From assembly GCA_963845755.1 (NCBI GenBank), contig CAWJTV010000034.1:736517-800516 (forward strand): a stretch of 64,000 bases of DNA. Reading direction: 5' to 3'. The stretch is from an uncultured Planctomycetota bacterium (GTDB lineage: Bacteria; Planctomycetota; Planctomycetia; Isosphaerales; Isosphaeraceae). Under the pieces are notes generated by a model. The model ran no database searches. It had not been told where the DNA came from and saw nothing but the letters and a program-made list of their open reading frames with translations. This document shows positions 50,457 to 64,000 of the stretch, one piece after another. Both the position numbers and the translations under genes were made by a program. How positions within the stretch are numbered: position 1 is the stretch's first letter; every line of letters starts with the position of its first letter.

Positions 50457-50856
50457 ACGCGGCCGTTTGACCGCAAGCAAAGCGAGGTTCCGGATTCCGG
50501 ATTCCCAATTCCGGATTCCGGATGAAGAAGGATTCGGGAATCTGGAGTCTGGAATCCGGAATTGGGAATCTCGAATCGGGAATCTCGAATCGGGAATCTC
50601 GAATCGGGAATCTCGAATCGGGAATCTCGAATCGGGAATCTCGAATCGGGAATCTCGAATCGGGAATCTCGAATCGGGAATCTCGAATCGGGAATCTCGA
50701 ATCGGGAATCTCGAATCGGGAATCTCGAATCGGGAATCTCGAATCGGGAATCTCGAATCGGGAATCTCGAATCGGGAATCCGAATCGGGATCTGAATAAT
50801 CCGGAATCAAGGATCCCCCAGATGCGCAGGGCTCAAGGATCCTACCGAGGAAGACT
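50457..50856 (-). mobile_element. Diverged inverted copy of the 7511-type element with expanded interior
   Basis: rc ends AGTCTTCCTCGGTAGGATCC and GCTTGCGGTCAAACGGCCGCGT match the family ends. Confidence 0.7.
50564..50773 (+). repeat. Tandem repeat, 15 perfect copies of GGGAATCTCGAATC
   Basis: Direct count; degenerate units on both flanks. Confidence 0.95.
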
Positions 50857-54492: not shown

Positions 54493-57400
54493 TCAGGGCA
54501 TGGTCTGAACCGGCCGGAAGCCCACGTCGCCGCCCCGATCCCACGGTGCCAGGTAATTGCCTTCCGAGGATTGGATGGTCAGCGGCCCGTGCCCGAAGGC
54601 GCCACCCCGAAAGATCCGTGAGGTCGCGTCGTTGACGATACCGGCCGACGCGTCCGGCCCGCCCTCAGCCACGCGGCCTTGCCGGTCCTGGCACCATTCC
54701 CAGGCGTTGCCGTGCATATCGAAGAGACCCAGGTCGTTGGGCCGCAGCGTCCCGACCGGGTGCAGCCGGCTCCACGCGTTGCTGAGACACCAGGCGTACT
54801 TCGGTAACAGGTCTTCGGCCTCGCCGAGCGACCAGCGCGTCACGCTGCCGGCGCGGCAGGCGTACTCCCACTCGTTCGTCGTCGGCAGCCGGTACCCGGA
54901 CCGGGTCCGGAAATCGGCAACCACCTTCATCCCCTGAGCATACTGACCCTTCTCGTTGGGCACGTAACACCACTGCTCCTTCGGGATGCCCTCCTGCTCG
55001 CTCAGCCAGTTGCAGTAGGCCGCCGCGTCGTACCACGTCACCTCATGGGCCGGGCAGTCGTCGGTCCGGGCGAAGGAATCGGGAGTGACCGGGACCTTGC
55101 GGAAGCGGCGGAATTCGGCGATGGTCACTTCGCGGCGCCGAGATGGCGAGGGCGTGATCGATCCGGAGCTGGGTTCGCCCCTCCCCCGATCCTCGCTGAA
55201 TCCGACCCGGCGGGACGAGGACCATCGTCTGGCCCTGGCCATTGACGAACCAGCGTCGAGGACCGCCCGACCTCGCGCCGGCCGCGGCGCGGTCGATCTC
55301 CGCCAGGCGCCCCTGTTGCCCCCAATGGCGCAGCAACCAGTTGACCGCCCCATGGACTCCCGGGTCAGGGTCGTTCTGGTAAAGCGCGACGAGCCCCGTG
55401 GCCAGTCTCTCCCGTTCCGAGGGCGGCAGGCGGTCTTCGTCGAACTCCCCGAGCGCCAGCAGGGCGGCCCGACGGACCGAGACATCACCGTCCCCCATGA
55501 GCAGGGCTTTCACCCCCGCGGCCGCGGCCCCGCCCCGTCCCAGGCGGTCGATCAGGTAGCTACGCAGCGTCGGATCGGGAGCGTGCTGTAGCAAAGGAAT
55601 GGCGCGTTGCCAACGCCCGAGGGAAGCGAGGGCCGCCGCCGCGTTGGCCCGCCGCCGCTGCCGGGTCTGGCGGACATCCAGGTCGGCCGCCGGTTCGCCC
55701 TCCCCGGCCGCTTCCTTCTCCAGGGAAACGAAGGCGTCCGGCAGACCCTCGGCGTAGTCGCCGAAGACACCGGTCATCGTGCGGCGGCCGGCCGCATCGA
55801 GCCCGTCCTCCACGAGGAGGGCGGCCAGGGGAGACAGCAGGTGTCGGCGCACCGGCCGCAACGCACCCGCCCAGCGCGCCAGTGACAGGCCGTCCTCCGC
55901 CATCAGCCGTGCCGCGACGTCACGATTGACGTCCTGCCACCGCGCATCGTCCGGGGCGTACTCCGCCAGCGCGCAGGCCGCGCGCAGGCGCTCGCCCGGC
56001 AGATTCTTGCGATTCCCCAGAACTTCCCAGAACCGCGCGCTGACTTCCGCCTCGTGCGGCTGCAAGGCCCGGCGAATGACCAGCACCTCCTGCGGGCCGG
56101 CGGTCAACAGCCTCTCGCGGAGGTAGCCAACCTGTTCCCGCGACACCGGCAGCAGGCCCAGACTGGCGTGCAATTGTCGCCGCGGATCATGGCGGGCTTT
56201 GGCGTCCTCGTAGGCCCCGCGCAAGGGACCGTCGAGCCAGCGTCGGTATGGGCCCATTTCGCCCACGATTTCCGGCACGTCCTCGGTCGCGGCCTCGAGC
56301 AGGCGATTCTGCAAGCCCTGGGCGCGTTGTCGGCCGTAACCCTCTCGGGCGATCACGAGCAGCAGTGCCAGGCCGGCCGATAGCAGCAATCCTCTCGTCG
56401 CGTGGTGGCGGGCGGCCCGTCGCATCATCGTCCGCTGCGGCGTCGTCCAGTCCCGAGGTCGCGTGAGCAGGCGGAGGGCCAGCCATTCCCACCACGGAGG
56501 TAGGAAGCGGTTCTCCGGCTGGCCGCTCCACAGGGCGGTTTGCTCGGCCAGGCGCAGCTCGGCCCGCCCGCGCCGGGTCTCCCGCAGCTTCCGCGTGAGC
56601 CAGTCCCGCAACGACGGCACCAGGTAGTCGTGCGTGAGCTGGTAGTAGCTCGGCACGCGCGTTCGACTCGGTCCCGGACGGGCCCGATGCCGAAGGCCCC
56701 GGCTGGCCGTTCGGCGGCGCCCCTCCGCCTCGTTCACCATCCCCGCGAGATCGGTCGGTGTGATCAGGCGCAGCTCGGCGTCCAGGATGTGGAGCAGGTC
56801 CTCGAACGCCCGCGGTCGGTCCGCGTAGCCCGAGAGCCGCAACAGCTCGTCCTCGGAACGCATATGCCCCTTGATGTCGGTCCCGGAGTTGGGCAGCAGC
56901 GCTTTCAGGATCGCCCGCGCCGCCTCCTGGTGGTAGCGGTGCTCGGGAGGCGCGTCGGCGGCGCTGAAAGTTTCTTCCAGGAAGGTGGCGCCCACTCCGA
57001 GCGTGCCTCCCACCCCGCGCAGTGATGCCGGCGTCCAGGCTCGGTCCTTCATCATCTGGGCGAACAGGGCCAGCCGGACGCAGATCACTTTCCCTTCCTG
57101 GGACAGGCCCGAGACCGCTTGCTCCACGAAATGCCGCTGCTCGCGGCCCAGGTTCCCGGGGACATCGGGCAGTGCGCCGAAGGCCCGCCCGAAGGCGGCG
57201 AGCACCTTCTCGGCGTGGCGCACCGGGAACAGGTCCACGGCCGCGGAGTTGCGCCCCTCGACCAGCGGGACCTCCAGCTCCCCCATGAATCGCGTCGCCG
57301 CCATCCAGAAATCGTCCCGGACCAGGACCAGGCACTGGACCCGTCCCCCGTCGCACTGCCGCAGCGCCTCGACCAGCTCGCCCTCGGGCGACTCTCGCCG

Positions 57401-58929
57401 CGCGTGCAGCCACTGCTCGAACTGATCCAGCACGATGAGCAACTTCTTCCCCGCCGGCAGGGCCTGGCCGCGACGCAGACTGGCCAGGGTCGCCGGCAGA
57501 CCCTCGGTCGGCGACAGGTCAGGGCAGTGCTTCGCCAGCAACGCTCTCAGCCGGGCCTCCGTCCGGTCGGCCGTAGCCTCGACGTAGACGGCCAGGACAT
57601 GATCGGCCAGCAGGGGAACAAGACCCGCCTTGACCAGCGACGACTTGCCACAGCCGGACGGCCCGTAGATCAGCCCCACGGGAAACGTCTCCCCGGGGTC
57701 GGTCTGCTCGACGCCGGTCTTCCAGAATCGGATGCTCTCGGGCAAGCCTTCCCGATCCCGCGGGCCGGGCAAGAGGCTCAGGAAGAAGTCCGCGTCGGCG
57801 GCGTCGAAGGACCGCAAACCCCGCGGGACGACCGTCGCGGCTACACCCTGCGAGGGGAAGCTGTTCGTGCTCGCCGGTGGATTCCGGTGGCTCGCCGAGA
57901 CCGGTGTTGTGCTGGGCAGGACCTTCATCCACGCCGCCGGCGAGCCCGAGCCCTCGGCGCCGGAGGCGAGGACATGTTCCAGGTCGTCGGCCAGGTCATG
58001 GGCCGTACTGTACCGTTCCGAGGCCCGGCGGGCGAGGGCCTTGAGGCAAATGCGGCTCCAGCTCGCGGGAGATGGCGGCGTCCAGATGACGCGGAGGGCG
58101 GGGTTCGGCCTCCGCGACCAGCCGTAGGGTCTCCTCCAGGGAAGTGGCGCGGAAGGGCCGCTTCCGGGTCAGCAGTTCGTACAGGACCACGCCCAGGCTG
58201 AAGACGTCGGAACGCCCGTCGACCCGGTGCCCCTCCCCGCGAGCTTGTTCGGGACTCATGTAAGACGGCGTCCCCGCATAGCTCGGAGCGGTGTCGAAGC
58301 TCGTCTCGCGCAGGGCCAGACCGAAGTCGGCCACATAAGGCCGGCCGGCGGGATCGAGAAGGATGTTGCCGGGCTTGATGTCGCGGTGGACGACGCCCCG
58401 CTGATGGGCGTGGTGCAAGGCCTCGGCGACGGTCGTGACCAGCCGCGCCGCCTCGGAGAAGGACGGCCATTGCAGCTTGACCTGTTGGGCCAGCGTCCGG
58501 CCTTCGATGAACTTCGAAACGATGAAGCATGGGAAGTCGGGACCGCTCCCGACGTCGTAGACCGGCACGATGTTCGGGTGGTCGAGGTGCCGCCGCGGCG
58601 CGGGCTTCGGCCAGGTAGAATTGGGCGGCCTCGGGGACGGGGACCAGCTTGGGGTGCGGCACCTTGACCGCAACCTGGCGCTCCAACTGCTCGTCGTCGA
58701 CGAGGTAGACCCTGCCGAATCCTCCCTCGCCGAGCAGGGAACGAACGCGGTACCGGCCGATATGCGACGGGCCCCCGTCCCTCCCTTCTACGGCGGAAAC
58801 AGGCTCGCCGGATCCGGCTGTGACGGTCGGTCCGACGAGGCATCCCCGGATCCGAGCGACATCGCCAGCAGGTACACCTTCGCACTCTCCGACCGCCATG
58901 GTCCGGTCAAGTTCCCCTGAGCTATCCAT
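54493..58929 (-). CDS. Ser/Thr kinase - STAND-type P-loop ATPase - HEAT - FGE-sulfatase (SUMF1) multidomain protein (several frameshifts)
   Basis: LGEGGFG, VAVK, HRDIKPGN, DFG; GPSGCGKSS and IVLDQFEQ; RLPT..EWEYACRAG, PNDLGLFDMHGNAWEW, GFRP. Confidence 0.9.
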
Positions 58930-59134
58930 GAGCGCCTCGAGCCGACATCTTCGGGGCAACCTCATCCCGCCTGGATGATAACAGACCGATGGTCAGGCCG
59001 CCAAGGTTCCTGAGCGACGTCGTGCGGGGCAGGTGGCCGTTTCCCAGGTCATGAGAAGGCGCATCAAAGGCGACCCCGATGGCCCGGGAAGCGAGCCAGA
59101 AAAAGTCCGGAAATGTTCCCATGCGAAATCTGCC

Positions 59135-59192
59135 GCTTGACGCCCAGCTTCAGCGGCCCGCGCCGCGGGTCCGCTGCAACCGCAGGTCAGGC
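59135..59192 (-). repeat. attC-like site 1 (R'' GCCTGAC, R' GTCAAGC)
   Basis: 58-bp imperfect palindrome with family core. Confidence 0.8.
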
Positions 59193-59368
59193 ATCTTTCT
59201 CGCCTGTGCCCTTTGAACTGATACGCTCGCGCGGTTGGTAGGCTCGACCCCACTCCCAGGCCAGGAAGCGCCACCCCCACCCGAGACAACGTCCCTCGGA
59301 TGGACTGCCCGGAGTTCGGTATGTGATCGCCAGTCCCCCCAAAACAACCCAAGACTCCGCATTGAGCA

Positions 59369-59426
59369 GTCTAACACAGAGGTTTAGGGTCCCGCGCAGC
59401 AGGTCCGCTACAATGCATCGCTATTC
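59369..59426 (-). repeat. attC-like site 2 (R'' GAATAGC, R' GTTAGAC)
   Basis: 58 bp, diverged; upstream ORF stop lies in R''. Confidence 0.7.
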
Positions 59427-59711
59427 GACGGTGCCATGGTGTGGGAAAATGCTGAACTTCTTACACGTCCTGCACCAGCGTCCTCTCCCGAGAGTCGCCC
59501 AGACGATGAGGTAAGCACCCGCCGGGACGAGGATGATCGCTGGCCCCCAGAAGAACGGGACAAAGCCAGCGACCGGAAGGGAGGCGATCATCCCGAGGCC
59601 AACGAGAAAGAGCCGGAGCCGGCTCTTCTGAAGCATTTCGCCGCCACACGTTCTGCATCCTGGTTCGGGCATGACACTGAAGCTACCTAATCCGCACCCG
59701 GGTTCGGGCAT
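59421..59711 (-). CDS. Cassette: small membrane protein, CxxC-2TM-CxxC, duplicated N-terminus
   Basis: CRTC...two TM...CRTC; MPEPGC twice (true start may be 59672). Confidence 0.75.
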   Translation of the reverse strand: MPEPGCGLGSFSVMPEPGCRTCGGEMLQKSRLRLFLVGLGMIASLPVAGFVPFFWGPAIILVPAGAYLIVWATLGRGRWCRTCKKFSIFPHHGTVE

Positions 59712-59723
59712 GACGCTGAAGCC

Positions 59724-59783
59724 GCCTGACGACCAGGTTCGGCGGCCCGGGCGGAGCGGGTCCGCTGCATCGCTTCGTCAGAC
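59724..59783 (-). repeat. attC-like site 3 (R'' GTCTGAC, R' GTCAGGC)
   Basis: 60-bp imperfect palindrome. Confidence 0.8.
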
Positions 59784-59784
59784 A

Positions 59785-60207
59785 TCATTGTGACTTCGGG
59801 AAGACCGCCGGCACAGTATCATCCCCTCGAATCGGCCGACTGACCTGAGTCCACCCGCCCTCGTCCTCTAACTGATAGTTCAGGATGCATCGATCTTTCT
59901 GGAAGTTAAGCGTGAAATGAGGTCCCTTCACATAGCGATGCGGGGTGTAGGAGTTGTGGTCAGTCCGCCAACCGTCGGGATGCGACCGAAGCCATGCGTC
60001 GAGGATACGGTCCTCCTCTGATCCCGTGGCGATGGCACGTTCGGAAACCGGCCGCCCATCTTCGTAGACCAGGATGTGTGTCGCTGGTCCCAGCTTGGCG
60101 ACCGCCACGGTTTGACGTGGGATCGAGCAACCGACGACCATCGACAGTAGAATCGCCCCGACGGCATCGGCGAGCGCTGGCAGTGGGGGCTTCCTCGTAC
60201 GATCCAT
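59785..60207 (-). CDS. Cassette: putative lipoprotein
   Basis: Lipobox VVGC; stop immediately before site 3. Confidence 0.75.
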   Translation of the reverse strand: MDRTRKPPLPALADAVGAILLSMVVGCSIPRQTVAVAKLGPATHILVYEDGRPVSERAIATGSEEDRILDAWLRSHPDGWRTDHNSYTPHRYVKGPHFTLNFQKDRCILNYQLEDEGGWTQVSRPIRGDDTVPAVFPKSQ

Positions 60208-60232
60208 CTTTTGACCCCCCGAATGCCTTGGC

Positions 60233-60361
60233 GTCTAACACGCTGTTTCAAAACGGGGACTGGCTCCGAGACTTCGAGGTGCCTGTCCTCCTTTTGAAAC
60301 CACCATAAAGGCTCAGGTTCAACCGCCCGCGCAGCGGGTCCGCTGCAAGCTTTCGTCAGGT
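60233..60361 (-). repeat. attC-like site 4 (R'' ACCTGAC) with 67-bp palindromic insertion at R'
   Basis: Core at 60319-60347; insert 60239-60305 flanked by TAA repeats, arms TTTCAAAA/TTTTGAAA. Confidence 0.75.
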
Positions 60362-60371
60362 TGCACGGGTA

Positions 60372-60881
60372 TCACCCGTAGATGACAACCGCGAGGCCGC
60401 GGCTCGAGTCCGCACCGCGGCGGACAACGTCCAGCCAGAAATCTCCATACTTGGCGAACTCTTCATGGGTCTCGAAGCGATGCTGCCGGCCCATCGAGAA
60501 GACTGCTCGACACTCCTCAAGATCGATGCAACGGGCCATCTCGCCGAACCTCCTGGTCGTCTCCGGTCCCCACGCGATGTCGAGGCCGAAAGGCCGCTTC
60601 ATTCCCCCGATCTCAACGATCTGGTATCGTTCGTCCTCTCGATAACTCCAGAATAAGTGGGCGAAGAGGTTGTTGCAGGCAGTCGCCGCGTCACTTGTCC
60701 ACTTCCTTCGCATCGCGACGAGCCCATCCATAAAGTCATACTGCGCGGAGAGAAGACCCGAACAGTCTCTCGGTTCCCAATCCAGCGGTTCGACGGCACG
60801 GTAGGTATCGTTCGTCTCAGAAAGTCTACACGTGAAAGCGGGCCAGTCACCGATAAGGTAGACTTCGCAATCGACTCCCAT
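60372..60881 (-). CDS. Cassette: hypothetical protein
   Basis: GGAGG RBS, ATG 60881, 169 aa between sites 5 and 4. Confidence 0.75.
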   Translation of the reverse strand: MGVDCEVYLIGDWPAFTCRLSETNDTYRAVEPLDWEPRDCSGLLSAQYDFMDGLVAMRRKWTSDAATACNNLFAHLFWSYREDERYQIVEIGGMKRPFGLDIAWGPETTRRFGEMARCIDLEECRAVFSMGRQHRFETHEEFAKYGDFWLDVVRRGADSSRGLAVVIYG

Positions 60882-60894
60882 GGCGCCTCCGACA

Positions 60895-60954
60895 ACCGAT
60901 AGCCTGAATTCAGCGGCCCGCCGAAGGCGGGTCCGCGGCATCGCCTCGTGAGAC
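60895..60954 (-). repeat. attC-like site 5 (R'' GTCTCAC, R' eroded TATCGGT)
   Basis: 60 bp with family core. Confidence 0.7.
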
Positions 60955-61143
60955 GGGCCGTCCCGTCTCGCGCAGGGTAGAGGCACCCGCCAGCAAAAGC
61001 AACAGGCCAGCGAGGACGATGCCGGCGACCGAGTACCACCCGAAGCCGAAGGCATGGGGGCCGGACACCAGGCCATCGGCGACGACCAAGGCGCCGGCCA
61101 GGAGGAATAACGACCCGGCGATGGTTTTGGCTCGCAGTCTCAC
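60910..61143 (-). CDS. Cassette: small 2-TM protein reading through site 5
   Basis: GTG start; two hydrophobic helices; GTCTCAC would be an in-frame TAA if canonical GTCTAAC. Confidence 0.6.
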   Translation of the reverse strand: MRLRAKTIAGSLFLLAGALVVADGLVSGPHAFGFGWYSVAGIVLAGLLLLLAGASTLRETGRPVSRGDAADPPSAGR

Positions 61144-61178
61144 GAGATCACCCAATGGCCATTCGATACGGGAAGCCC

Positions 61179-61277
61179 GTCTATCGATAAGCTCCGCGGC
61201 ACGGCCCGCTGAGCACCGCCTGGATGTTACCAGAACGCGACGCGTCGAGCCGAGTCCGCTGAAGCGCGAGATCATGC
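61179..61277 (-). repeat. attC-like site 6, long form (R'' GCATGAT, R' GATAGAC)
   Basis: 99 bp; TTCAGCGGACTCGGC...GCCGTGCCGCGGAGC. Confidence 0.6.
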
Positions 61278-61629
61278 CTCGGGCCTCGGCATGGTGCGTC
61301 GGGACTCGCGACTGACGCGACAACGGAACGCCCGCGAATCTCAGCCAGCCAGCGACATCGAAACTCGGCCTGCCGGGAGCGAAGCCATCCGTTCCGCAAT
61401 TGTAAGGCCCGGCATCGTCCTCAACGATGATCGTCCCCTGCTCGTCGGGCACCATCACGAGCCTCGCCACGAACTTGGAGAAAGCCTCCTCCGAGAAGAG
61501 TTCGGTGCGAAGATTGGCGATCACAGCAGGCCGAACGCGGACCCGGTCGGGCCACCGCACATGTCGGAGATAGAAGCCGTCGATTGCCGCCCGAAGCCGG
61601 ACCCAGTTCTTGTCATGGCCGTTGGGCAT
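61272..61629 (-). CDS. Cassette: hypothetical protein; 3' end apparently frameshifted into next cassette
   Basis: GGAGAGG RBS, MPNGHDKNWVRL...; TGA in R'' is out of frame. Confidence 0.6.
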
Positions 61630-61645
61630 GCCCTGCCTCTCCGAC

Positions 61646-61828
61646 GGCTAACGTCCCCGATCAGCGGGTCCGCTGGATCGAATCGTTAGAGTCGTCCTTC
61701 GTAGGATCCCTCCGCCCTGCCGCACTCCGGGGATTCCGAATTCCGGATTCCCGGATCATTCCCCTTCGGGAATCGGGAATCTCGAATCGGGAATCCCGAT
61801 TGGGTTGCGGCCGAAGGCCGCGTTAGGC
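61646..61828 (-). repeat. attC-like site 7 (R'' GCCTAAC, R' GTTAGCC), centrally deleted and split by a miniature element
   Basis: Reconstructed empty site is 46 bp. Confidence 0.7.
61690..61823 (+). mobile_element. 134-bp copy of the 7511-type miniature element
   Basis: Same ends; TAG at 61687-89 and 61824-26. Confidence 0.85.
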
Positions 61829-62308
61829 GTTACTGACCACCCAAAGGTAAACCAACCGGGCGAAGCCGAACACAAAGAAGAAGCCCCCGGCTCCGAAAAG
61901 GGACACAGACGCCGCAAGCCATCGCCCAGCCGTGCTGTATATCTGATTCCGCGTATCGGAAGCTGACTTCACCTCGGCTCCGTTGTCGGGGACCCTCGCC
62001 AGCCGAATCGCCTTGATGTGATAATGCAAGCCGTCCGCAGAATGATATCGGTGGGACAGGGCACAAGCAGTCGCCATGATGAACAGTAGCGAGGAAATGC
62101 CCAGACATAATCCGGCCCAAGCATCGCGCATCTGTACAGGAGCATCCTTGCTTGCGGCAAGGTTTACGAGGAAGAACGCCAGACCGGCGATGCCCAGCAA
62201 GGACAATCGAATGATCTCAGCGGAATAGCTCTGATACTGGGTCAACAATTCTACGTCGGCACGATACTGATCTTCCGGGACAGGAGTCGTGCCAAGATCG
62301 GTCTTCAC
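61823..62308 (-). CDS. Cassette: 3-TM membrane protein
   Basis: GGAGG RBS, GTG start; stop TAA inside R'' GCCTAAC. Confidence 0.78.
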   Translation of the reverse strand: MKTDLGTTPVPEDQYRADVELLTQYQSYSAEIIRLSLLGIAGLAFFLVNLAASKDAPVQMRDAWAGLCLGISSLLFIMATACALSHRYHSADGLHYHIKAIRLARVPDNGAEVKSASDTRNQIYSTAGRWLAASVSLFGAGGFFFVFGFARLVYLWVVSNA

Positions 62309-62337
62309 GCGCGAACCTCCCGACTCCGAACGGAGCC

Positions 62338-62442
62338 GCCTGACACAAAGCAAAGCTCAGCGGCCCGGCCCGCCGAGGATGAGCGTCGACTCCGCCAGAG
62401 GCCGCCGCGGCGGGCCGGGTCCGCTGAAGCGGCGGGTTAGTC
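62338..62442 (-). repeat. attC-like site 8, long form (R'' GACTAAC, R' GTCAGGC)
   Basis: 105 bp, long stem CAGCGGACCCGGCCCGCCG/CGGCGGGCCGGGCCGCTG. Confidence 0.82.
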
Positions 62443-62451
62443 TCGCCGTAG

Positions 62452-63081
62452 CTACGGAAGGAGGTCTCGACTGTTGTCGAAAACGCAGCCGTCTCCCCCC
62501 GCCCACCTCACGTCCTGGAAACGATCCGTATCCCAGAATACGATCGGTCGAGTCCCCGTGGGAACGGTCCACTCCGCTTGCTCGTCTTCGGTCATCAAGA
62601 ACTCGTGGGCGAGATAGTCCCGCAAGTCCGTACCATAGACGATGATATCGGTCTGGTGAACCGAGAACACCGGGTTGCCCGCCAGATGAGGTTCGGCGGG
62701 CATCATCCGGTGCATGTACAACGGGATGAGCCGCGGAGCCGCGGCGACCAACTGCTCGGCAACCCGCTTCGCCTCGACCGTCGATCGCGGGCGTGGTCCC
62801 CATTCCTCCAACCAAAATCCGTTGTGTTCGACATCAAAGACGACACCGCTACGAGGCAGATCAAACCAGTCCCGCAGGGCTGCTTCGTCTCCGGAACGCC
62901 AGTCGGGAAACCGCTCGCCCCGTGGCAGGGCGGTCTGGAGGAACGTCCGCAGGTCGGGCGGGAACCGGAACGCGAACCGTGACTCGGCAGCGGCGACTTC
63001 GGCGTCCGATAGCCCGTCATCGAAGACGATGCCGCGCGACCGCAGATGGGCAATCATGTCGTCCCAAACGTCCGCATCCAC
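62452..63081 (-). CDS. Cassette: SMI1/KNR4-like protein
   Basis: GLSDAEVAAAESRFAFRFPPDLRTFL, APRLIPL, NPVFSVHQTDIIVYG. Confidence 0.8.
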   Translation of the reverse strand: MDADVWDDMIAHLRSRGIVFDDGLSDAEVAAAESRFAFRFPPDLRTFLQTALPRGERFPDWRSGDEAALRDWFDLPRSGVVFDVEHNGFWLEEWGPRPRSTVEAKRVAEQLVAAAPRLIPLYMHRMMPAEPHLAGNPVFSVHQTDIIVYGTDLRDYLAHEFLMTEDEQAEWTVPTGTRPIVFWDTDRFQDVRWAGGDGCVFDNSRDLLP

Positions 63082-63097
63082 GACTACGACCTCCGCC

Positions 63098-63155
63098 GCC
63101 TAAAGCCAAGGTTCAGCGGCCCGCGCAGCGGGTCCGCTGGCACCGCCGGTTACGC
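63098..63155 (-). repeat. attC-like site 9 (R'' GCGTAAC, R' TTTAGGC)
   Basis: 58-bp imperfect palindrome. Confidence 0.8.
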
Positions 63156-63409
63156 GGCGGTTCGGACATCTTTTCGGCCTCCAACTCTTGGAGGGCTTCC
63201 GGGGCGAAGTCCGCCCCATTGGGCCAAACGACCGTACCGCAAATCGAGCCCAATGTCACGCACGCGAAATACGCTGGGTCTCGGAGTGGCTCGAAGATCG
63301 GGCCATCGAGCCGTGGACGCACATCGACCTGCCTGGTCGTTCCATCATTGAAAGTCAACCGCAACGAATGTGGCCCACAGACCCGCGCCTCACGGATGCG
63401 AAGGATCAT
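63113..63409 (-). CDS. Cassette: DUF2442-family protein (putative antitoxin)
   Basis: LRLTFNDG, GPIFEPLRDP, GTVVWPNGADFAPEAL. Confidence 0.85.
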   Translation of the reverse strand: MILRIREARVCGPHSLRLTFNDGTTRQVDVRPRLDGPIFEPLRDPAYFACVTLGSICGTVVWPNGADFAPEALQELEAEKMSEPPRNRRCQRTRCAGR

Positions 63410-63424
63410 ATCCCACTCCTCGAC

Positions 63425-63650
63425 TCACTCCAGCCCCTCGATCGTTGGCAGAGGCTGGCTGGCACGCGCCAGTTCCCAGGAATGCTCCAATTCGTCGCGA
63501 TGGGCTGCGGCCCACTCTGAGACGAGTGTCCGTGCACGCCGCGGCATATGGCCCTCGAGTACCTCGGCCGTCTCGATCGACACCGTGGCCTCGTACTCGC
63601 CGTCCGTCGATGGCGTGGAGGTGTCGATTGCGTAGAGGGTGACCAAGCCT
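63425..63650 (-). pseudogene. Cassette: 5'-truncated DUF4160-family gene (putative toxin)
   Basis: EVLEGHMPRRARTLVSEWAAAHRDEL...W...LPTIEGLE present; N-terminal HxPPH region absent. Confidence 0.7.
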
Positions 63651-63656
63651 TGATCT

Positions 63657-63717
63657 GCCTGAAGCGAGGGTTCAGCGGCCCGCCGAGAGGCGGGTCCGCT
63701 GCAACCAATTGATGGGC
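63657..63717 (-). repeat. attC-like site 10 (R'' GCCCATC, R' TTCAGGC)
   Basis: 61-bp imperfect palindrome. Confidence 0.78.
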
Positions 63718-63723
63718 TCCAGC

Positions 63724-63987
63724 CTATGCCGACCAGACCTCGGTGCCAGGTGGCACATCGGATTTGGGTAAGGCCACCACGATCGCGTAAGCACCGTGCT
63801 CGCTGACGTTGAAGAAGTCGATGCCATCGATCGCCGTCCGAACTTCCGACCCATCGGGGCGGCGCAGGCACAAGCCGTCGCCGATATGGAACCGCTCATC
63901 GCCCTCAGGCACGATTCCCGGCACGAGGATGGTGCCACGCTGACGGATCGTGAAGACATCCTCGACAGTAAAGAGTTAACGGACCAT
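63724..63987 (-). pseudogene. Cassette: small EF-Tu domain II-like beta-barrel protein with stop at codon 4
   Basis: GGAGG RBS, ATG GTC CGT TAA then LFTVEDVFTIRQRGTILVPG... Confidence 0.65.
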
Positions 63988-64000
63988 CGAGAGAGCCTCC

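Follow-up and report, generated by a model that had tools for sequence, protein, structure and literature searches.

Why have nearly all of the ten attC sites at positions 59135–63717 of the window (the whole 64,000-nt stretch of DNA from an uncultured Planctomycetota bacterium that was analyzed) lost their AAC/GTT crossover triplets? The sites lie on the minus strand in a tandem row of integron cassettes (Table 1) and show the hallmarks of attC, i.e. an imperfect R''/L''/L'/R' palindrome, an asymmetric spacer and extrahelical bases. The cassettes carry single top-strand open reading frames, some of them frameshifted, with an attC site after each. The R''-spacer-L''...L'-spacer-R' layout, the asymmetric central spacer with two extrahelical bases, and the AAC/GTT triplets in young sites of this genome are those of the described attC site (Frumerie et al. 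2010, PMC2811028; Nivina et al. 2020, PMC7439510), but the window sites have the kinds of lesion that reduce recombination by IntI1. The ten R''/R' triplet pairs listed in the first-pass annotation are all re-read identically. As stated there, only site 7 keeps AAC/GTT, and it is split by a MITE and has a central deletion. The conserved paired AAC/GTT triplet, the criterion for a functional attC, is present in one of the ten sites, and the R box is predicted to be paired in three. Site 4, previously called empty, is followed by a 140-aa open reading frame.

The array resembles a CALIN or the distal tail of a sedentary chromosomal integron (Cury et al. 2016, PMC4889954) in its ten same-strand attC sites, its single-gene cassettes, the lack of a nearby intI in the assembled DNA of the window and the presence of an integrase elsewhere in the genome. 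It differs in that nine of the ten cores are degenerate and the array head is cut off. No intI is found on the assembled side of the array; its proximal end coincides with the contig end, and among the matches listed this end has no overlap with the start of contig C47 or the end of contig C39 that would join it to another array. Because the head is cut off, a CALIN and a distal tail look the same here. In a genome of the same genus (G001) the flanking kinase is kept (84%) with no attC of this type within ~38 kb, and thus this locus offers no ancestral copy of the array for a per-site comparison.

Table 1. Features of the cassette array, with positions in the window and R''/R' triplets of the attC sites.
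Feature	Positions	Strand	Remarks
attC site 1, most distal	59135..59192	-	GAC/GTC; R box predicted to pair, p 0.62
attC site 2	59369..59426	-	AGC/GTT; L stem broken; upstream ORF stops at TAG in R''
Cassette ORF, 96 aa	59421..59711	-	no Pfam or NCBIfam family
attC site 3	59724..59783	-	GAC/GTC; R box predicted to pair, p 0.97
Cassette ORF, 140 aa	59785..60207	-	no family
Palindromic REP/MITE-like repeat, 67 nt	60239..60305	.	inserted at duplicated TAA inside site 4 R'
attC site 4	60303..60361	-	GAC/TTT; L stem broken
Cassette ORF, 169 aa	60372..60881	-	no family; 79% identical homolog in genome G029
attC site 5	60895..60954	-	CAC/TAT
attC site 6, long type	61179..61277	-	GAT/GAT; L stem broken
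attC site 7	61646..61691	-	AAC/GTT; R'' rebuilt by MITE end; terminal loop deleted
MITE, 137 nt	61690..61826	.	inserted in site 7 R''; original R'' at 61822-61828
Cassette ORF, up to 176 aa	61823..62353	-	TAA stop inside site 7 R'' (original)
attC site 8, long type	62338..62442	-	AAC/GTC; 5-nt spacer duplication displaces R'
Cassette ORF, 209 aa	62452..63081	-	weak SMI1/KNR4 match, below cut-off
attC site 9	63098..63155	-	AAC/TTT
DUF4160 + DUF2442 toxin-antitoxin-like cassette	63113..63650	-	DhiT/DhiA-like, below NCBIfam cut-offs
attC site 10	63657..63717	-	ATC/TTC; paralogous site in contig C18 is AAC/GTT
Last cassette ORF	63724..63988	-	95% identical to C18 cassette; early in-frame stop; contig ends just upstream

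The damage is concentrated in the cores, as had been proposed: 18/60 core positions of the ten window sites are changed from consensus vs. 20/218 L-stem positions (Fisher p=1.6e-4). With A/T positions alone the counts are 13/40 and 4/50 (p=0.006), and when site 5 R' is dropped and site 4 R' is read as restored, the core count is 15/57 (p=0.0014). The inner stems, described earlier as persisting, do so in seven of ten sites, but in sites 2, 4 and 6 the bottom-strand L-stem pairing probability is 0.01–0.03. Likewise, the lesions are in part the substitutions that they were taken for, but insertions, duplications and deletions are also seen at sites 4, 7, 8 and possibly 5. Site 4 has the 67-nt repeat, of which the genome has 61 related copies, and the triplets of this site are readable only with a 7-nt spacer register. 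Site 7 has the 137-nt MITE (185 related copies) and the central deletion, despite which its fold is still predicted (L 0.74, R 0.98), and site 8 has the spacer duplication. R' of site 5 was possibly lost through a slippage deletion between TTAGGC-like repeats.

Errors in the consensus at a poorly covered contig end could also give changed cores; the array does extend to the contig end, and neighboring genes show frameshifts. This is highly improbable, however. Short-read contigs show no differing letter at 4/18 changed bases (R' of sites 3 and 6, and either end of site 4) and agree with the assembly across all of site 4. These contigs have a depth of 2–3 and come from one study, possibly of the same sample; the public runs contain 5%–12% of the words, and the contigs were used only for single-base checks, uncovered parts being uninformative. 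Furthermore, ~80 identical motifs elsewhere in the assembly are canonical, and the pattern of core damage is found in many other assemblies.

In sites 1 and 3, GAC is paired with GTC, and a divergent integrase accepting this combination had been suggested. One intact IntI is found in the genome, encoded at C3:161245-162186, and it is canonical (R145, K170, H276, R279, H302, Y311); K170, the triplet-reading lysine, aligns with K160 of VchIntIA. No second integrase above cut-off accompanies it (the genome is 88% complete). The attI junction of the intact intI and its first seven sites have GTT. AAC/GTT is present in 39/40 proximal and 29/43 distal sites of the five intI-headed arrays of the genome, vs. 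1/10 in the window. In a GAC/GTC system, a cassette with GAC at its end should have (G)TC at its start, but none of the four cassettes ending in GAC starts with GTC. The recurrence in sites 1 and 3 is at chance level (2/10 seen vs. 1.6 expected, given 4 GAC and 4 T3>C), and the covariation test that had been called for is negative (2/304 sites vs. 1.2 expected). The enlarged set also rejects covariation, with GAC together with GTC in 5/389 sites vs. ~2.4 expected, and a pair-level permutation of A1'-T3 compensation yields 4 observed vs. 4.2 expected. With wild-type attI1 as partner, one of two substrates with a fully paired GTC attC does recombine as well as wild type (PMC2811028, Table 4), but GTC on both partners lowers IntI1 recombination 150-fold to >10,000-fold (PMC2811028). 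With the kept lysine, the AAC/GTT sites beside the intact intI and its attI junction, and the starts of the GAC cassettes, a divergent integrase is refuted, by the very test put forward with that suggestion, and retains next to no probability. The array reveals no new recombinase specificity.

It had also been suggested that the stems persist for a role at the RNA level, e.g. as a translation barrier or in mRNA stability, and leave the cores free to decay. attC hairpins are able to block ribosome progression (review PMC8876359), and top-strand L-stem pairing is predicted at >0.5 in 7/10 window sites. Such a role is very unlikely and finds no support here, because three window stems no longer fold and stem changes are uncompensated: 18 older arrays have 95 stem pairs with a change, of which 1 is compensated, 18 still form G-U on the top strand and 30 still form G-T on the bottom strand. 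The stem changes fit a neutral model (A/T 52 vs. 53.4, G/C 60 vs. 58.6). Terminator-like sites are at chance (4 vs. 3.9), as is the promoter and terminator scan as a whole, and an Rfam search gives a single chance match (E-value = 0.45).

The farther a site ranks from intI, the more core lesions it has (Spearman 0.38, p=4e-4), which is the result of the proposed check of core conservation against distance from the integrase. Orphan arrays of related genomes generally decay core-first: over 333 sites in other genomes, the core:stem ratio is 2.75 with an intact intI, 2.16 with a broken one and 2.15 where none is found (intact vs. none found, p=0.20). At most one canonical site remains in 7/35 arrays, i.e. 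these are as "locked" as the window array, and three of the seven come from genomes in which no intact intI was found. The distal halves of the arrays that this genome itself has, in contrast, show no core bias (15/258 vs. 61/944), and a sign test on 18 older arrays is not significant (12/18, p=0.24). No description of core-first decay of attC sites was found in the literature searched, which covered main articles and few subscription journals.

The row of cassettes is an integron array of the ordinary kind, in decay. We give a probability of about 0.6 to the reading that it is an old tail or CALIN of planctomycete-type attC sites, which were born AAC/GTT and decayed after cycling ended, cores first, through drift away from TpA. 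The attC sites would be released from purifying selection as soon as their cassettes ceased to cycle through attI. A genome drifting from TpA would then wear TAAC/GTTA before the rest of the site, mainly because this is the sole A+T-rich, TpA-containing part of a G+C-rich sequence. TAAC would become TGAC or TCAC on either strand, and GAC at R'' and GTC at R' would arise independently. Small repeats that target TAA/TTAG may insert into the same motif and damage the cores further. The outcome would be a largely frozen array with genes also beginning to decay; the window copy of the cassette common to this array and the intI-headed C18 array carries a nonsense change.

The canonical ancestry of the sites, the rise of damage with age, its occurrence in other genomes and the like decay of a non-integron repeat are observed; we infer the substitution process itself and, from IntI1 data, the loss of recombination. 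The main driver looks neutral because the genome avoids TpA (rho 0.46) and GTTAG in a non-integron repeat decays alike. In 181 copies of this MITE, T3 of GTTAG is lost in 22% vs. 3.7% for hairpin G/C, and left and right ends change mostly independently. At four-fold sites the ratio of A to G is 0.041 in the T_A context, compared with 0.12 for C_G and 0.45 for G_C. When calibrated on the MITE, orphan cores show 267 observed vs. 236.5 expected lesions (101 vs. 95.8 in the subset with no intI found). Substitutions have a spectrum that is symmetric between the strands (A1'>G 26, T3>C 26).

Several counts stand against a purely neutral process. The window has 18 changed core positions vs. 3.8, 4.9, 6.7 or 8.8 expected from neutral models (p 3e-5 to 0.06), and the MITE-calibrated excess is about two-fold (p 0.06–0.09). 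In the pooled set, G1/C3' lesions number 72 vs. 36 and T2/A2' lesions 61 vs. 23 by the MITE expectation (two- to three-fold). Private substitutions in 60 repeat families show a context effect of just 1.3-fold, with 8 TAA events.

It is possible, though doubtful, that survivorship acts on top of neutral decay. An intact IntI in trans would excise whatever cassettes lie between two working sites, and a cell that lost a toxin-antitoxin cassette would die; the survivors would be lineages whose cores are damaged, chiefly at the scissile G1, and G1/C3' lesions would be selected to lock orphan arrays in genomes with an active integrase, especially around such cassettes. The residual two-fold excess in the window is consistent with this. 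G1>T is present in both attC sites flanking the DUF4160/DUF2442 cassette, and in 3/9 in-register window sites vs. 13/333 orphan sites (p=0.006, post hoc). G1 changes lower IntI1 recombination 1,000- to 10,000-fold (PMC2811028). By the four-fold model the excess is larger in intact-intI genomes (106 vs. 68.6, p=8e-4), and G1/C3' lesions number 34/206 there vs. 27/250 (p=0.10). However, this excess comes mostly from one genome, G147 (60/103 sites), and also from 17 R' boxes with at least 3/5 bases changed, some misparsed; single-base lesions are alike across intI groups. The R'-side excess in intact-intI genomes, tried as a separate signal, was reduced on inspection to whole-box losses and misparses. 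The window array, moreover, was chosen for being extreme. Core lesions are not under-dispersed across sites (unhit 46 vs. 47.4; window 1 vs. 1.03), the core bias persists without an intact intI, and the non-integron repeat largely reproduces it. The array is not strictly locked, since sites 1, 3 and 7 keep predicted R-box pairing. Thus, of the "locked array tail" proposed at first, an old and mostly non-recombinogenic array is what stands. "Cassette loss killing" is known from Vibrio (Richard et al. 2024, PMC13108822), and the window array likewise has a toxin-antitoxin-like cassette, but in the passages of that article considered here low excision is tied to array orientation, not to mutated cores. 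If selection of this kind does operate, cassettes would be domesticated stepwise with hairpins intact, leaving a position-specific signature readable from genomes; a real scissile-base excess would make domestication measurable in comparative data.

Under neutral decay, old attC sites in G+C-rich, TpA-avoiding genomes would lose AAC/GTT first, and therefore recurrent GAC/GTC would be a signature of decay, not of a new specificity. Counts of old arrays may come out too low with detectors that give weight to the triplet. On the bottom strand, the first extrahelical base of most attC sites of the type seen here is C, not the G of the described attC site (PMC2811028; PMC7439510).

The window is the final 64 kb of contig C34, in an assembly of 14.3 Mb (49 contigs, 88% complete). 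Cassette open reading frames and attC top strands are on the minus strand, and thus site 1 is the distal end. An attC site was identified in every inter-cassette gap inside the window. The R''/R' triplets of all ten sites read as the first-pass annotation listed them, and the core (R''/R', canonically AAC/GTT) is more mutated than the stem (the L boxes), with 18 of 60 core and 20 of 218 stem positions changed (p = 1.6e-4); for 4 of these 18 core bases, short-read contigs carry the same letter as the assembly. Persistence of the stems, also claimed there, holds for the other sites but not for sites 2, 4 and 6, whose stems are predicted no longer to fold. The damage is not confined to substitutions, as sites 4, 7, 8 and perhaps 5 have insertions, a duplication or deletions, and site 4, previously taken to be empty, is followed by an open reading frame. 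Where the stop codon of an open frame lies in R'' (sites 1, 2 and 7), it still reads TGA, TAG or TAA, which weakly suggests selection on some of the genes.

Coordinates of features in the window and in other contigs of the source genome
Feature	Contig	Position	Remark
attC array, sites 1–10	window	59135–63717	minus strand
Head of array	window	cut off at 64000	truncated by contig end
MITE in R'' of site 7	window	61690–61826	
MITE in attC core	C39	458296	
37-nt direct repeat	window	59652–59727	start of 96-aa cassette; start region duplicated
Ser/Thr kinase and STAND NTPase gene	window	54493–58965	apparent frameshifts spread it over several frames; no array beside the orthologous DNA of a same-genus genome
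Tandem 14-nt unit	window	50500–50800	like MITE internal repeat; SNRESRIGNLESGI repeats in spurious open reading frames
attC site	C18	about 88585–88645	GAC/GAT cores; stem centrally deleted to a perfect palindrome, extrahelical base mirrored
DUF4160/DUF2442 paralog	C36	242737–243212	78% identical; without recognisable attC

Loci carrying this attC type are mostly labelled Planctomycetota or Isosphaeraceae. The source genome has five more such arrays, headed by an intact intI in C3 and by intI fragments in C18, C39, C41 and C47; several cassettes are shared between arrays. Their 83 sites were catalogued by an L-box-only scan, with profile matches added afterwards. The catalogue omitted at least one site, the centrally deleted one in C18, so that stem damage outside the window is somewhat under-counted; the palindromic form of this C18 sequence suggests a template-switch correction of an attC. 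In the C3, C41 and C47 arrays several R' boxes continue straight into one common sequence, the start of which resembles a group II intron 5′ end.

The proximal sites were checked, and AAC/GTT is retained in 39 of 40 sites in proximal halves, 29 of 43 in distal halves and 1 of 10 in the window. Once a cassette is inserted, the TTRRRY half of R' is part of the one that follows, and each R'' must therefore be compared with the start of its own cassette. Paired in this way, none of four GAC cassettes has a GTC start (3 of 9 in 18 older arrays elsewhere). A single integron integrase in the genome passes the family cut-off (485 bits). Aligned to VchIntIA over 312 residues, it keeps the lysine equivalent to K160, described as the triplet-reading residue (PMC2811028), and GTT is present at the attI junction and the first seven sites of its array. 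The same paper reports that IntI1 recombines 150-fold to >10,000-fold less when both partners carry GTC. The proposed divergent integrase accepting GAC/GTC is thereby refuted. The last window cassette also makes a new specificity unlikely, as its 95% identical paralog bears AAC/GTT; the window copy has a nonsense change as well. The array is an ordinary element of canonical origin that is decaying, and the observation of damaged cores is real; an artefact is an unlikely explanation.

An RNA role for the stems is likewise improbable. Among 95 stem pairs with a change, 1 is compensated; changes that keep a wobble pair show no preference for the transcribed strand (18 vs 30). A review (PMC8876359) describes attC hairpins as able to slow ribosomes and as not being terminators; the stem-pair changes give no sign of selection for such slowing.

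Comparison loci in other genomes were seeded by L-stem patterns only. In an initial survey (304 sites, 12 non-planctomycete loci removed), changes in core and stem number 6/330 and 25/1320 next to an intact intI, 22/294 and 38/1176 next to a broken one, and 119/1200 and 202/4800 where the locus has none. A second survey covered 389 sites in loci with assignable genome-level intI status (reversed controls, 0 matches). Its 333 orphan sites, i.e. those without adjoining intI, have core:stem ratios of 2.75 (intact intI elsewhere in the genome), 2.16 (broken) and 2.15 (none found), with p = 0.20 for intact against none, all pushed upward by perfect-stem seeding and the score threshold, in genomes that are related and incomplete. 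Among arrays with at least four sites, 7 of 35 keep at most one canonical site, and core damage reaches 25% or more in seven. By these sequence comparisons, the window stands at the far end of a widespread pattern. Among the papers listed by literature searches, supplements aside, none is on core-first attC decay.

The main cause is probably neutral erosion of the TpA-containing core (probability roughly 0.62). The commonest core changes in the initial survey are A1'>G and T3>C, with 26 occurrences of either; both are one event, TAAC to TGAC, read from one strand or the other. TpA is avoided in the genome (rho 0.46), and A/G at four-fold sites is 0.041 in T_A, 0.12 in C_G and 0.45 in G_C. A context model fitted to stems alone (genome equilibria, assumed transition bias of 3) closely fits stem A/T and G/C counts and predicts 63 of the 86 core hits in the 18 older arrays; the prediction falls to 46 when the model is non-coding and to 35 when it is uniform. 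An integrase-independent control, the MITE inserted in site 7, agrees. This MITE is 137–150 nt long, with about 185 copies, some in tandem, and a hairpin with GTTAG at its end (the labels MITE and REP-like, the latter for the repeat in site 4, are given by copy number and structure). Among 181 of 193 copies, with 12 dropped as out of register, terminal GTTAG is changed at T3 in 22%, A4 in 13%, G1 in 4% and T2 in 3%, vs 3.7% for hairpin G/C; a change at the left end is mostly independent of one at the right (5 at both ends, 13 and 17 at one end alone). Scaled on this control, orphan cores have 267 changes observed vs 236.5 expected. Against context-driven erosion, private changes in 60 repeat families show a context effect of just 1.3-fold, and the distal halves of the genome's own arrays display no core bias.

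Core hits in the window number 18, where 6.7 (p = 0.006) or 8.8 (p = 0.06) are expected; the p values are unadjusted for an array chosen as an outlier. Without R' of site 5 there are 16 vs 6.4 or 8.3. G1>T, at the scissile base of R', occurs in 3 of 9 in-register window sites vs 13 of 333 elsewhere, and two of these sites flank a DUF4160/DUF2442 toxin-antitoxin-like cassette. Selection against excision, added on top of neutral erosion, is a possible but less probable reading of this excess. It is plausible because G1 mismatches are reported as the most damaging to IntI1 recombination (PMC2811028) and toxin-antitoxin cassettes in Vibrio are reported to select for low excision (PMC13108822). However, core hits are spread across sites no more evenly than chance, the R boxes of sites 1, 3 and 7 are predicted still to pair, and the excess in intact-intI genomes is fragile, with 60 of the 103 orphan sites in that class coming from one genome. 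In the C36 paralog of the DUF4160/DUF2442 cassette, the gene ends in TGAC where R'' would stand.
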